From IMG/VR virus record IMGVR_UViG_2724679544_000004: a stretch of 6,788 nucleotides of DNA. One strand, 5' to 3'. The stretch is from a virus. Lineage: Duplodnaviria > Heunggongvirae > Uroviricota > Caudoviricetes. Below the pieces are notes generated by a model. It was not told the origin of the DNA. It ran no database searches and saw nothing but the letters and a program-made list of their open reading frames with translations. The position numbers and the translations under genes were made by a program. Below are positions 1 through 6,788 of the stretch, piece after piece; position 1 is the first letter of the stretch, and the number at the start of each line of letters is the position of its first letter.

Positions 1-61
1 CATCAGATGGCTGCTTAAAAAAAGAACAAATGGTAGTGTCCGCTATTGCCAGTACACCTCA
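1..61 (+). mobile_element. Terminal 61 bp of a putative IS3-family insertion sequence (element end at position 61, body lying left of the window)
   Basis: Positions 1-61 are the exact reverse complement of 6728-6788; identity stops at 61/62. Read outward from the window the repeat starts TGAGGTGTACTGGCAATAGCGGACAC, which resembles the IS3 terminal repeat as I recall it (TGATCTTACCCAGCAATAGTGGACAC) and ends in the TGA/TCA typical of IS3-family termini. Frame 1 ends with a TAA at 16-18, compatible with the 3' end of a transposase ORF. Not verified by search. Confidence 0.5.
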
Positions 62-222
62 GTCAGATATGTCAGCAGCCCAAACAGCAGACTCCCCAGC
101 ACGCCTATTGCCGCCCACTGAGACGGGGAAAACCTGTCCAGCAACTGCAGGAACCAGTAGCCCGTTCCCACCGCTGACGTGGTGTATGACACACCTGTTG
201 TGATTTTTTCCATCTGGTCCAT
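43..222 (-). CDS. Class II holin (phage 21 S21 / EssD-EssQ type pinholin), C-terminally truncated and fused to 5 codons from the terminal repeat
   Basis: Translation [59 protein letters not shown] matches my recollection of S21 (…[51 protein letters not shown]) up to TYLT. Dual-start Met-x-x-Met motif; SD GGGAGA about 7 nt upstream of the ATG at 220-222. The ORF-track extension to 327 begins with GTG and is not supported. Confidence 0.85.
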
Positions 223-529
223 ACCCCGTCTCCCGTTATCCGGAAGCTGACAACAATAAAAAAGCCACCAGTTAACTACTGATGGCTCTGATAACTCATG
301 CAAGCGTCTCAGACGACCCACTGACACTACCGGTGAGTTTAACGATACCTTCCATTTGACTGGCTCACTTTTTATGATGATGCCGGTGCATTTATCTCCA
401 GCACCAGACTTTCTATCTCAACGCCATACGTTGCATTTTTGGTAATATCCGTCAGCGTCAGTGCATTTAGTCCCACTGCCAGACTGTCTTTTATGGCCTG
501 GAATGCCGGGCCAGTACGATGACGTAGTA

Positions 530-718
530 TCACTCCGGCTCAGTTGCACCACTGACCACCACATCACCTTCTGCTGCAATCGCCTGCATCAGGGTATAAG
601 GGGTTATGGCCACCGGACTACCAAACGGCTGCCAGCCCTCTTTCAGTTTATGTGTCAGCTTTTCCGCAAGATCTGACGGCGGCGCCGCCCTGACAACATC
701 ATAGTGTTTAAATGCCAT
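530..718 (-). CDS. Small conserved hypothetical phage protein (62 aa from the internal ATG; ORF track gives 530..733), possibly DUF1737-like, upstream of the holin
   Basis: ORF MAFKHYDVVRAAPPSDLAEKLTHKLKEGWQPFGSPVAITPYTLMQAIAAEGDVVVSGATEPE with SD-like GGTGGAAAG 6-8 nt upstream of the ATG at 716-718; same strand and position as small lysis-cassette-associated proteins in lambdoid prophages. Family assignment is recollection only. Confidence 0.45.
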   Translation of the reverse strand: MAFKHYDVVRAAPPSDLAEKLTHKLKEGWQPFGSPVAITPYTLMQAIAAEGDVVVSGATEPE

Positions 719-977
719 GGTTCTTTCCACCATCTGAAAAATAATTCTTTAAAATACCTGACATGTAATACAGAAAAAACACAAAACCATACCTTAAATA
801 AAAACCTGATTATCAAGCAGATATGCATGGATAAACTACAAGACGAGATATAAACCACCCTGCATTTAAATAAACAATAAACAACATCAGAAAAATAATT
901 CTGCTCTATGGTTTAATTCAAAAATATCATTTATACTTTTCAGAACATCACCAGCAAGGCATAAACAAGGAAACTAA

Positions 978-1313
978 ATGAAGTGGATTGTGATTGATAC
1001 AGTTATCCAGCCATCATGCGGAATATCTTTTTCAGTCATATGGAGTAAAATAAAATTAATAATCTGGTATCAATCGGATGCTTTCTTACCTCCTGAAAGT
1101 ATATTTACACTGACTCACACAGGCATCATGCTCAATAACAAAGTGCTACCTGTAACCATTTACAACGTAGTACCATTCAATAAAACATTCTGGAATTTAA
1201 TCAAAAACAGCCAGGAATGCCCTACAAATACAGATAACGTATTGAATGAATGCTTTAATAACCGTTGCACTCTGCAAATATGTCCTTATGGACTAAAACA
1301 ACAAAGTCCATAA
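978..1313 (+). CDS. Hypothetical 111-aa protein encoded in an AT-rich island (moron-like cargo gene), unknown function
   Basis: 336-nt open frame in very AT-rich DNA, where stops should be frequent. AAGGA SD about 8 nt upstream of the ATG. Opposite orientation to the surrounding late operon. 6 of 13 Ile codons are AUA. Five Cys, mostly in the C-terminal half. No family recognised. Confidence 0.4.
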
Positions 1314-1330
1314 GGAGTTTACTCACATCT

Positions 1331-1369
1331 GACAAAATCAATATAAACAGCCCCTCCGGAGAGGGGCTG
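1331..1369 (-). terminator. Rho-independent terminator-like hairpin (9-bp perfect GC-rich stem, CGGA loop) with U-tract on the minus strand
   Basis: cagcccctc-cgga-gaggggctg at 1348-1369; on the minus strand it is followed by TTTATATTGATTTTGT. No U-tract on the plus side. Confidence 0.5.
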
Positions 1370-1760
1370 GAGAGTGGCGCTATGTGCCATTGCATGGTGC
1401 CGGGTGCCTCCCGGTGAATTCAGTACCAGCACCTGAATCCGCGATTATCCCATATACCTACTCGCTGATTGCCCCTCCGCACAGGGGGATTCACCATGCC
1501 AGTTTCTTTTAACAAACTCCCCGCAAACCAGACAACAGTCAACCGCCTGAATTGTGAAGTATTTAAAAATTTCTCCCGCTAACTGATACCCGGCTAACAG
1601 TCTGGCGTTTTCTTTTTCAGCAACGGGAAAGCAACAACCACCACACCCGCCACCAGCACACCGTCAGCCGGCACTGACATTATCCGGCTGCTGCAATGCC
1701 ATTCACAAAAACAGTAAGCAATCACTTTTTACCGTAACAGGTGATAATCCAGATATGTAT

Positions 1761-2114
1761 CTACCCCAGATGAGTAATCCGAAGTTCATCCATACCACAG
1801 GTCCTGGCTATTCTGTTGTACTCCTGAACAAGAGCAAATAATTCTGAATTAGCAACCATGAACTCATCGCAAACCCTCTGTATAGCATCACTATTCAGAA
1901 TAATAACGTCTCTTCCCGAAAGACGATCAGGAGTACAGAACAAAACTGTCAAACGGCTGAAGGCCTTTGCTCGTGCTGCATTGACTATATCAATACGCTG
2001 CCTAAGGATGAAACACCCCGACGCCTCATCAATATTCACTCTACCCACACCATATGAATGATAAATACTTAATGCTGAAAAAACCATTAGACCGTATAAC
2101 AAATACTCAATCAA
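1761..2114 (-). CDS. Hypothetical protein (117 aa from a TTG start; 108 aa from the first ATG at 2085-2087), unknown function, immediately downstream of the phage tRNAs
   Basis: Long ORF co-oriented with the late operon. Hydrophobic N-terminus. 6 of 11 Arg codons are AGA/AGG and several Ile codons are AUA. No convincing SD for either start, so coding status is uncertain. Confidence 0.35.
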   Translation of the reverse strand: MIEYLLYGLMVFSALSIYHSYGVGRVNIDEASGCFILRQRIDIVNAARAKAFSRLTVLFCTPDRLSGRDVIILNSDAIQRVCDEFMVANSELFALVQEYNRIARTCGMDELRITHLG

Positions 2115-2224
2115 TACTTAACAGAACTTTTATTTTTGACAAATATATAATATTTTCAACAATATCCTGAGCCAGGTATATTTCAGTATAAGGCTCTGCC
2201 GGAAGGAATCTGGAAGAATGAATA

Positions 2225-5582: not shown

Positions 5583-5589
5583 ATGCGTT

Positions 5590-5622
5590 GAAAATAAAAA
5601 CAAAAACCCGCCGAAGCGGGTT
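5590..5622 (-). terminator. Rho-independent terminator ending the relB-relE-hokD transcription unit
   Basis: Minus-strand hairpin AACCCGC-TTCG-GCGGGTT followed by TTTGTTTTTATTTTC, about 70 nt downstream of the hokD stop. Confidence 0.6.
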
Positions 5623-5690
5623 AAGTGCGGGTGCGTTGAGGATGCCTGCCACATCAGAGGTGGCGAGGGATTTCTCACTCGCCGGGTCTC

Positions 5691-5846
5691 TTACTCCTCA
5701 GGTTCGTAAGCTGTGAAGACAGCGACCTCCGTCTGGCCGGTTCGGATTCGTACCTCGCAGAGGTCTTTCCTCGTTACCAGTGCCGTCACTATGACGGTTA
5801 AACAGATGACGATCAGGGCGATTAACATCGCCTTTTGCTGCTTCAT
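5691..5846 (-). CDS. hokD: Type I toxin HokD (RelF), 51 aa
   Basis: Translation MKQQKAMLIALIVICLTVIVTALVTRKDLCEVRIRTGQTEVAVFTAYEPEE matches HokD/RelF as I recall it; found by manual translation (under 60 aa, so absent from the ORF track); AGGAG SD upstream. Confidence 0.9.
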   Translation of the reverse strand: MKQQKAMLIALIVICLTVIVTALVTRKDLCEVRIRTGQTEVAVFTAYEPEE

Positions 5847-5917
5847 AGCCTGCTTCTCCTGTCAACGCAAAGCAGAAGTGTCACCTTCGGTGCGAAACAG
5901 AGATGTCATGCTTTGGT

Positions 5918-6205
5918 TCAGAGAATGCGTTTGACCGCCTCGCTATATACTTCCGAGCGTTCTCTTTTCCCAACAGAAATCACGAAAACGACAACTTTCT
6001 CGTCTATAACCTGGTATACAAGGCGATAGCCTGAAGACCGGAGCTTAATCTTGTAACAATCAGGCATACCACGGAGCTTGTTTGCTTCAATCCGGGGTGA
6101 CTCAAGTACTTCAACCAGCTTCTTTTTCAACTGTTCACGTACCGTCGAGCCCAGCTTTCGCCATTCCTTTAGTGCCCGCTCGTCAAAATCCAGAAAATAC
6201 GCCAT
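5918..6205 (-). CDS. relE: Type II toxin RelE (mRNA interferase), 95 aa
   Basis: MAYFLDFDERALKEWRKLGSTVREQLKKKLVEVLESPRIEANKLRGMPDCYKIKLRSSGYRLVYQVIDEKVVVFVISVGKRERSEVYSEAVKRIL is essentially the K-12 RelE sequence; 1-nt overlap with relB. Confidence 0.95.
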   Translation of the reverse strand: MAYFLDFDERALKEWRKLGSTVREQLKKKLVEVLESPRIEANKLRGMPDCYKIKLRSSGYRLVYQVIDEKVVVFVISVGKRERSEVYSEAVKRIL

Positions 6206-6444
6206 CAGAGTTCATCCAGCGTCACACGTACTGGCTTAGGATTACGAAGCCGTTCTTTCACTATCTCCACAAGTTCAGCATCTTCATCACTCAGGAGTGT
6301 CTGTTTGAACGGCAAGCGTTCATTGTCAGCGATATACTCGAGCATGAGACGAAGCGCTTCAGAAGGAGTTACACCCATTTTTTCAAGCGCGGCGTAAGAA
6401 CGCGCTTTAAGTTCATCGTCAATACGCAGGTTAATGCTACCCAT
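6205..6444 (-). CDS. relB: Type II antitoxin RelB, 79 aa
   Basis: MGSINLRIDDELKARSYAALEKMGVTPSEALRLMLEYIADNERLPFKQTLLSDEDAELVEIVKERLRNPKPVRVTLDEL is essentially K-12 RelB; SD AGAGGTG upstream. Confidence 0.95.
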   Translation of the reverse strand: MGSINLRIDDELKARSYAALEKMGVTPSEALRLMLEYIADNERLPFKQTLLSDEDAELVEIVKERLRNPKPVRVTLDEL

Positions 6445-6453
6445 GTCTTACAC

Positions 6454-6508
6454 CTCTTGTAATTACAAATGTCATTACAAGTATCGCACTACAACATGCT
6501 TAGGGCAA
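6454..6508 (-). promoter_or_regulatory. relBE promoter (-35 TTGCCC, 17-bp spacer, -10 GATACT) with palindromic relO operator
   Basis: Minus-strand TTGCCCTAAGCATGTTGTAGTGCGATACTTGTAATGACATTTGTAATTACAAGAGGTGTAAGACATG; the operator contains the perfect palindrome TTGTAATTACAA (6457-6468) and its variant TTGTAATGACAT. Confidence 0.7.
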
Positions 6509-6727
6509 GTCACGAAGGAAGTCAGAAAGTAGTCGTAAGAACGGTGATCACTGTCCGCTTTGTGCCAGGAGCAGCCATTGCTAAGTCCATCCTGTATTGT
6601 GCAGGTCAGCTCTTTTTTAAAGAGTCCGGCCATCATCTTACTGGTACAGACACCATATACTTTGTGACGGTCAGGCTACATATGCACAACTCAACTTATT
6701 CATCTATTTTTTGCTTTAGCATGTCAG

Positions 6728-6788
6728 TGAGGTGTACTGGCAATAGCGGACACTACCATTTGTTCTTTTTTTAAGCAGCCATCTGATG
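6728..6788 (-). mobile_element. Second, inverted copy of the same 61-bp putative IS3-family terminus (element body lying right of the window)
   Basis: Exact reverse complement of positions 1-61; identity ends at 6727/6728. Confidence 0.5.

Follow-up and report, generated by a model that had tools for sequence, protein, structure and literature searches.

The window analysed here, a stretch of 6,788 nucleotides, most probably represents a Qin-type prophage remnant lying between two inverted copies of the insertion sequence IS600 on a contig of Shigella flexneri 3a strain BS1061, where the IS600 copies are the joints of older IS-mediated deletions or rearrangements and the segment has been flipped by IS600 recombination. 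We put the probability of this reading at about 90%. The arrangement is of an ordinary and well-known kind in Shigella and belongs to known biology: IS600 is one of the five insertion sequences that have expanded in all Shigella species, and both the expansion of IS600 and IS-mediated rearrangement are documented in this group.

The window is the reverse complement of the entire contig LAJW01000149.1, to which it is identical. The contig belongs to the assembly LAJW00000000 (S. flexneri 3a strain BS1061), which was made from MiSeq reads with CLC, and the assembler named in the corresponding paper is CLC Genomics Workbench 7.0.3/7.0.4. A repeat search of the window confirmed that positions 1-61 and 6728-6788 are exact reverse complements over 61 nt, as had been noted in a sequence-only reading of the same DNA. 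The repeat finder stretches the arms to 68 nt, only by way of 4 chance matches in 7 positions. The loss of identity at the inner boundaries is as abrupt as that reading had described: it stops exactly at the tip of IS600, with uninterrupted prophage holin sequence from position 62 onward and ydfV, 99.9% identical to that of K-12, running up to position 6727. Such an exact inverted repeat of 61 nt cannot have arisen by chance within 6.8 kb.

Read outward, the repeat starts TGAGGTGTACTGGCAATAGCGGACAC. The earlier suggestion that it is the end of an IS3-family element can now be made specific, since the 61-mer matches, at 100%, sequence that 2,664 of 5,426 complete E. coli genomes list as ‘IS3-like element IS600 family transposase’, and the 61 nt align to nt 1204-1264 of a full IS600 copy. 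Both contig ends are the right end of IS600, that is, the 3' end of the transposase, and the same end is presented inward on both sides, just as had been supposed. Copy 1 (1..61, plus strand) contains the last five transposase codons and the TAA stop (1-18, stop at 16-18), its terminal inverted repeat ends ...CCTCA at position 61, and the element continues leftward off the contig. Copy 2 (6728..6788, minus strand) is the mirror of copy 1, with the stop codon at 6771-6773, and continues rightward off the contig.

The window itself keeps only these last five codons of the transposase, and the remainder of the element was described from related loci outside it. The size of IS600, obtained from an E. 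coli site that carries it and the corresponding empty site of K-12, is 1264 bp plus a 3-bp duplication (AGC/ATC), and its tips are TGAGGTAGCC... and ...GTACACCTCA, i.e., TG...CA with imperfect terminal inverted repeats. The flanking copies in finished genomes encode products of 385 aa or 100 + 272 aa with HTH_Tnp_1, HTH_21 and rve domains, and the transposase is annotated with a ‘programmed frameshift’ in RefSeq. The element at this locus is no different from IS600 elsewhere, with full copies of 1264 bp, TG...CA tips and a two-part transposase. The locus differs in that no copy keeps a target-site duplication and that, in some lineages, one copy has lost its first 315 or 340 nt to IS1.

The outer limit of the repeat stands at 61 nt because the contig ends there, and this stub length is technical. 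At the same junctions in other assemblies the IS600 stubs are 16, 28, 52, 925 or 1288 nt long, and no consistent sequence variant that might explain a cut at 61 nt was found at position 62 from the tip among the IS600 copies compared. The window is a whole short-read contig with stubs of a multi-copy repeat, equal in length, at both ends, as is typical of contigs ending in a collapsed repeat. The assembler would have stopped 61 nt into the multi-copy IS600 on each side and, because it could not pass IS600, the 61-bp inverted repeat would be the technical stub of two repeats of roughly 1.26 kb. The alternative offered in the sequence-only reading, a contig broken at a collapsed repeat, is true as well and is not in competition with its main reading. 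More generally, where the two ends of a draft contig form a perfect inverted repeat, the first reading to consider is a collapsed repeat present in two inverted copies.

The interior of the window comprises 6,666 bp, bounded by a holin gene and a ydfV gene that are both cut, and matches a lambdoid prophage at 98.5%. The class II holin gene is truncated (62..222, minus strand; PF04971 in the window's own gene, L018, and annotation in L002), with the first 161 of its 216 nt left, and it reads into IS600 to give a chimeric ORF of 59 aa at 43-222. It is followed on the minus strand by a hypothetical lambdoid gene of 53 aa (372-533) and a gene for a DUF1737 protein (530-718), both from the L018 gene table and the L002 annotation. 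An IraM/PmrD-family anti-adapter of 111 aa (978..1313; IraM annotation, PF11183) is encoded on the plus strand. Then come, again on the minus strand, the STnc100 small RNA (1339..1528; Rfam RF02076, 132 bits against a gathering score of 47), a gene for a small DUF3927 protein (1594..1680; L018 gene table, L002 annotation) and a pair of phage tRNAs (2225..2478). This pair consists of tRNA-Arg(TCT) at 2225-2301 and a CAT-anticodon tRNA at 2403-2478, which is assigned to Met by ARAGORN and is tRNA-Ile in a related E. coli record.

Further along the minus strand, the annotation places a Q-type late antiterminator of 273 aa (2622..3443; PF03589), the RusA Holliday-junction resolvase of 118 aa (3458..3814; PF05866), and, together with the K-12 comparison, a YdfU/DUF968 protein of 349 aa (3827..4876; PF06147) and a hypothetical lambdoid gene of 92 aa (4878..5156; also in the L018 table). 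The rem gene (5223..5473, minus strand), located by the coordinates of K-12 rem and by its split ORFs, is interrupted by a 1-bp deletion near position 5364 in the window and in other copies of the 3a lineage, and the rem product called in L018 has only 41 aa. The type I toxin gene hokD (5691..5846, minus strand, 51 aa; K-12 comparison, PF01848) is intact. The genes relE (5918-6205) and relB (6205-6444), on the same strand, with Pfam matches and 99.9% identity to K-12, form an intact type II toxin-antitoxin pair (5918..6444). Finally, the truncated ydfV (6469..6727, plus strand) retains 259 of 306 nt by comparison with K-12 and reads into IS600 as a chimeric ORF of 101 aa at 6469-6774. The IS600 tips thus cut inside the holin gene and inside ydfV, in agreement with the earlier proposal that the prophage is truncated on both sides.

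Synteny and high identity to the late-regulation and toxin-antitoxin region of Qin identify the segment as a Qin-type lambdoid remnant. It shares its gene order with Qin of E. coli K-12 (essD...quuQ-ydfU-rem-hokD-relEB-ydfV), from the holin gene via Q, ydfU, rem, hokD and relEB to ydfV, and the hokD-relEB-ydfV block is 99.9% identical to that of K-12 Qin. The type B arrangement described below is, in addition, collinear with the ydfJ-ydfI flank in K-12. However, IraM, STnc100, DUF3927 and two tRNAs lie between holin and Q in the window, where K-12 Qin has cspB/cspF; RusA adjoins Q, unlike in K-12 Qin; and the window is without everything outside holin...ydfV.

Both junction-specific chimeric ORFs recur in many finished S. 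flexneri chromosomes, where the same junctions lie beside two inverted IS copies flanking the segment, as the sequence-only reading had expected. Over its 6,666 bases, the segment in the 3a genomes CP054892 and CP026098 and at locus L006 has 3-4 differences from the window. Both flanking IS600 copies are of full length (1264 bp) and inverted, with their right ends inward, in the nearest 3a genomes, and a full 1264-bp copy occupies the left (copy 1) site in the finished 3a loci L006, L015 and L016. It should be noted that these full-length copies come from 3a strains other than BS1061, and the finished 3a genomes probably represent the context in BS1061. The inverted IS600 repeats around the segment share 924-1264 bp at >99% identity. 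Beyond them, the locus is bordered by ydfJ, ydeS/ydeR or a Rac-like ydaU gene, and none of these lies next to the genes of the segment in K-12. The neighbour on the holin side varies by lineage, being ydfJ in some and ydaU in others. The arrangements were assigned to types A, B and C; locus L011 was excluded from typing, as no more than fragments of its IS regions could be aligned. In types A and B, one IS600 copy is without its first 340 nt and hence without its outer end.

The segment occurs in opposite orientations between the same neighbours, the ydeP side and the ydfJ side, in different finished genomes. The flanks of types A and B are exchanged: what lies on the left in type A lies on the right in type B as its reverse complement, and vice versa, with 99.8-99.96% identity. 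Of the 25 contigs read, about 15 were tallied as type A and 7 as type B. Orientation follows the SNP lineage, since three A-main genomes have 5 private SNPs in common, which are absent from three B genomes. A unique joint between IS1 and nt 341 of IS600 is common to A-main and B, while in L010 IS1 is joined to nt 316. The swapped flanks, the tracking of SNP lineage by orientation and the IS1|IS600 joints together indicate at least two flips, on a lineage tree based on a handful of SNPs and one structural marker. With long, near-identical inverted repeats on its two sides, both orientations between the same outer flanks and at least two flips, the segment is therefore inversion-prone.

In the order of events that we infer, older IS-mediated deletions or rearrangements would have removed the rest of the prophage, the IS600 copies being their joints and not simple insertion sites, and the late-regulation region would have been left together with the hokD and relBE toxin-antitoxin modules. 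The IS600 copies could then act as portable homology, such that the segment would be flipped by recombination within the inverted pair and would acquire different neighbours by recombination with IS600 copies elsewhere. The flips are probably due to homologous recombination by the host, with the IS600 copies as partners. A search for crossover signatures in the SNPs of these copies across types A and B found few informative sites, with noisy patterns that possibly reflect gene conversion or assembly error.

Could the difference in orientation be a mis-assembly, so that the segment has one fixed orientation in nature? A 6.7-kb unit between inverted repeats of 0.9-1.26 kb is indeed ambiguous for short-read or reference-guided finishing. 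However, we consider this improbable, since the orientation is consistent within the SNP lineages described above and each orientation is found in several independent assemblies. Moreover, an inversion of a >5-kb segment, ‘probably mediated by IS600’, has been reported between the Sanger-finished genomes of S. flexneri 8401 (5b) and 301 (2a) (Nie et al., 2006, PMC1550401). The published IS-mediated inversions of S. flexneri (Nie et al., 2006, PMC1550401; Hawkey et al., 2020, PMC7373316) likewise use inverted IS copies as the homologous sequence, although the flip at this locus is small, at 6.7 kb, and seems to have taken place at least twice. The ‘inversion 4’ of Nie et al. (PMC1550401) was published without coordinates, neither of its two genomes is among the loci compared here, and its identity with this locus is not claimed.

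It might also be asked whether the remnant works as a switch whose repeated changes of orientation have functional effects. The segment retains an intact Q antiterminator and a late transcription unit running out through the cut holin gene, and, according to the gene tables, outward transcription is on the same strand as the adjoining genes in each orientation, into ydfJ-ydfI in one and towards ydeP in the other. If so, flipping could re-target terminator-resistant read-through to different chromosomal genes, where both the expression of Q and flipping within a strain are hypothetical. Such a switch would be very unlikely.

Target-site triplets were compared at the IS600 copies of the locus, and none of these copies has matching 3-bp flanks; the outer triplets in type C, for example, are AAG and AAT. 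Models of simple insertion, of a single inversion (with each outer triplet the reverse complement of the opposite inner one) and of composite transposition were considered for the triplets, and none fits. Since there are no matching target duplications at the IS600 copies, both mark recombination or deletion joints.

Tn5 and Tn10 are composite transposons with two inverted IS arms around a cargo, and inverted copies of one IS around a cargo are also present here. The two IS600 copies could then be thought to mobilise the 6.7-kb segment, including relBE and hokD, as one unit, for which the differing holin-side neighbour among lineages (ydfJ or ydaU) would also speak. However, the likeness is in geometry only, and mobilisation of this kind is extremely unlikely. 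No direct duplication surrounds the unit, given the mismatch of AAG and AAT in type C and the loss of one outer end in types A and B, and one arm is cut in many strains. A second location of the unit is likewise lacking: neither junction occurs in any of the 5,426 complete E. coli genomes, and the context changes on one side at a time, which is the pattern that recombination between IS copies would give. The outer ends of such a pair would both be left ends, and its activity is putative. The earlier description of the locus as ‘composite-transposon-like or inversion-prone’ is thus upheld in its second part, by the two orientations between the same flanks, and finds no support beyond geometry in its first, as neither target-site duplications nor movement of the whole unit were seen.

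That the repeat is a pure assembly artefact, a k-mer overlap or chimeric contig end with one adjoining IS600 copy or none, has a probability close to nil. The symmetrical ends of this short-read contig, each 61 nt inside a multi-copy repeat, would fit such an artefact, but the contig joins two distinct unique sequences to the right tip of IS600, and independently finished chromosomes show both of these junctions at a distance of 6,666 bp, again flanked by IS600 on either side.

For the contig itself, the result explains the end points and has little significance beyond housekeeping. Read as an IS600-bounded Qin-type remnant, it provides a further small, concrete case in S. flexneri of prophage decay and segment inversion mediated by IS600, and the orientation of the 6.7-kb block could, in combination with the IS1|IS600 joint (nt 316 or nt 341), be a minor structural lineage marker. 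In addition, when the left junction was scanned in one representative genome per species, the single match was a 4.44-Mb chromosome labelled E. coli ECMA0423, which has the type A arrangement.

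The window begins and ends with 61 nt (1-61 and 6728-6788) that form a perfect inverted repeat, and a perfect repeat of this length cannot have arisen by chance in 6.8 kb. The repeat finder extended the arm to 68 nt only by including scattered chance matches. Read outward, the repeat begins TGAGGTGTACTGGCAATAGCGGACAC, and the 61-mer matches the annotated IS3-like IS600 family transposase sequence at 100% identity in 2,664 of 5,426 complete E. coli genomes. The distance from the end of the transposase gene to the tip is 44 nt in an annotated IS600 copy; therefore, both ends of the window are IS600 right ends, and the IS3-family end proposed by the sequence-only reading can be named. 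The first copy carries the last five transposase codons and the TAA stop (16-18), and the mirrored stop is located at 6771-6773. When an occupied E. coli site is compared with its empty counterpart in K-12, the element measures 1264 bp, with a 3-bp duplication (AGC/ATC); its left tip is TGAGGTAGCC and its right tip is GTACACCTCA. The occupied site, in the bovine strain E. coli 95_0274 (10052-11315 of the locus read), holds an independent intact IS600 in the ydfV-flxA interval, some 120 bp away from the point of insertion in Shigella, and its duplication is imperfect. No other complete E. coli genome seen in this analysis has IS600 near the ydfV spot.

The IS600 tips create two chimeric ORFs, a 59-aa holin fusion (43-222, minus strand) and a 101-aa ydfV fusion (6469-6774, plus strand), which were used as exact-sequence queries against public assemblies. 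The window is identical to the reverse complement of contig LAJW01000149.1 (6,788 bp), which belongs to the draft genome of Shigella flexneri 3a strain BS1061 (LAJW00000000; Haiti, 2014; MiSeq reads, CLC Genomics Workbench assembly). At the same junctions, other assemblies leave 16, 28, 52, 925 or 1288 nt of IS600, and no sequence variant at position 62 from the tip was found in the IS600 copies. Therefore, 61 nt is where the assembler stopped, not a biological repeat length, as had been foreseen in the alternative of a contig broken at a repeat.

Between the two ends, 61-5860 matches lambdoid prophages in many E. coli genomes with identity up to 98.5%, and 5800-6729 is 99.9% identical to the hokD-relE-relB-ydfV block of the K-12 Qin prophage. 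Based on the genes tabulated for contig LAJW01000149.1, together with E. coli annotation, tRNA and Rfam results, the minus strand carries the truncated holin gene (62-222, 161 of 216 nt kept), a 53-aa hypothetical gene (372-533) and a DUF1737 gene (530-718), followed by an IraM/PmrD-like gene on the plus strand (978-1313). An STnc100 sRNA (1339-1528, minus strand; Rfam, 132 bits vs. a gathering score of 47) sits between the IraM-like gene and a DUF3927 gene (1594-1680, minus strand), and contains two GC-rich hairpins of repeat family D8, GCCCCTCCGGAGAGGGG and GCCCCTCCGCACAGGGG. The minus strand continues with tRNA-Arg(TCT) (2225-2301) and a CAT-anticodon tRNA (2403-2478; Met according to ARAGORN, tRNA-Ile in a related E. 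coli record), a phage-borne pair directly downstream of the Q antiterminator gene (2622-3443), and then with RusA (3458-3814), YdfU/DUF968 (3827-4876), a 92-aa gene (4878-5156) and rem (5223-5473). The rem gene is frameshifted into 41-aa and 50-aa ORFs by a 1-bp deletion at about 5364, common to the window and the other 3a-lineage copies; the base is present in types A and B (layouts described below). Also on the minus strand, hokD (5691-5846), relE (5918-6205) and relB (6205-6444) form intact toxin-antitoxin modules (5691-6444), 99.9% identical to K-12, within a decayed prophage, and one may speculate that they partly account for the retention of the fragment. The ydfV gene (6469-6727, plus strand) keeps 259 of 306 nt. 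Both holin and ydfV are cut at IS600 tips, so IS600 marks both truncation points of the prophage, as the sequence-only reading had supposed.

Eleven junction-bearing contigs, finished or long, were examined. The nearest to the window are L006, L015 (CP054892, FDAARGOS_713), L016 (CP026098, FDAARGOS_74) and L017 (AMWM01000069.1), with 3-4 differences in the 6,666-bp interior segment; L015 and L016 are both of serotype 3a. In L006, L015 and L016 each IS600 flank is a complete 1264-bp copy; the two are more than 99% identical and lie in inverted orientation, their right ends facing the segment. Therefore, the picture of two inverted IS copies presenting the same end inward holds in chromosomes of the same lineage, and the BS1061 chromosome presumably has the same layout. 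In this 3a type, one outer neighbour is the ydeS/ydeR fimbrial genes and the other is a Rac-like prophage ydaU gene, itself interrupted by IS2, while in types A and B an outer neighbour is ydfJ, joined 267 bp inside its K-12-retained part. None of these neighbours adjoins holin or ydfV in K-12. In L017, the 24 nt outside the full ydfV-side IS600 (CCCTGGTGCTGGTGGCAATTCTGT) correspond to the outer flank of neither the 3a type nor types A and B, which reflects a fourth context or else a join made through the IS during assembly.

With the segment in window orientation, type A (L005, L010, L012, L013) reads ydeP(-)...IS1-IS600', segment, IS600-ydfJ(+)-ydfI(+), where IS600' is a shortened copy, and type B (L007-L009) reads ydfI(-)-ydfJ(-)-IS600, segment, IS600'-IS1...ydeP(+). 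The left flank of A matches the reverse-complemented right flank of B, and vice versa (99.8-99.96% identity); therefore, the neighbours are the same in A and B, and the 6.67-kb block between them is turned the opposite way. The K-12 order on one strand is holin, then ydfJ and ydfI, which makes type B the arrangement collinear with the ancestral one and type A the flipped one. L005, L012 and L013 have five private SNPs in common that are absent from B, and L010 is a separate lineage; a unique joint of IS1 to IS600 nt 341 is common to these three and B, whereas L010 has IS1 joined to nt 316. In the unrooted tree ((3a, L010), (L005/L012/L013, B)), both linkage states occur within each pair, so at least two flips are needed, which supports the suggestion of an inversion-prone arrangement. 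Orientation tracks lineage in these sequences. A residual concern is that the segment may be mis-oriented in some assemblies, against which stand the number of independent assemblies and the consistency of orientation with lineage. Considering the anatomy of the locus and established knowledge, the segment would be flipped by host homologous recombination across the 0.9-1.26 kb of inverted IS600.

The IS600 copies themselves are recombination joints, not fresh insertions, as judged from their flanks. The 3-bp sequences on the two sides do not match for any copy examined at the locus: the holin-side IS600 of the 3a type has AAG outside and GTC inside, and the ydfV-side copy AAT outside and CAG inside. 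Neither the triplet pattern of a single inversion nor that of composite transposition fits. The locus had also been called composite-transposon-like, and the geometry does fit a composite transposon, but the defining tests fail, since there is no duplication around the unit, in many strains the outer end of one IS600 arm is missing, context changes hit one side at a time, and neither the holin-IS600 nor the ydfV-IS600 junction occurs in the 5,426 complete E. coli genomes searched.

The repeat is thus confirmed and its earlier interpretation supported, and the feature is an ordinary, already known one, namely a Qin-type prophage in decay, flanked by two IS600 copies in inverted orientation and represented by a draft contig. 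Five insertion sequences, IS600 among them, have expanded throughout the Shigella species, whose reference chromosomes each contain 229-348 IS insertions; Shigella ISs are known as causes of gene interruption and, between homologous copies, of deletions and rearrangements (Hawkey et al., 2020; PMC7373316). An inversion of a >5-kb segment between S. flexneri 5b and 2a was "probably mediated by IS600" (Nie et al., 2006; PMC1550401); it was given without coordinates and is therefore not equated with the present locus. Only the occurrence of at least two flips of a small block in S. flexneri history is mildly new.

In types A and B, one IS600 copy has lost its first 340 nt to IS1 (315 nt in L010). 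A single IS1 terminus is involved throughout, joined to IS600 nt 316 in L010 and to nt 341 in L005, L012, L013, type B and L024; these look like nested IS1-adjacent deletions, and the joint could serve as a structural lineage marker. L011 (CP024981.1), a finished chromosome left out of the typing, lacks part of the segment, and its IS600 and IS1 regions align in short fragments only, which could reflect unusual local decay or an assembly/masking problem. L024 (CP178302.1, "Escherichia coli strain ECMA0423", 4.44 Mb, species-representative) has the holin-IS600 junction, the nt-341 joint and the type A layout, features otherwise seen in this analysis only in S. flexneri assemblies, and the record may be a Shigella flexneri genome deposited under the name E. 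coli.
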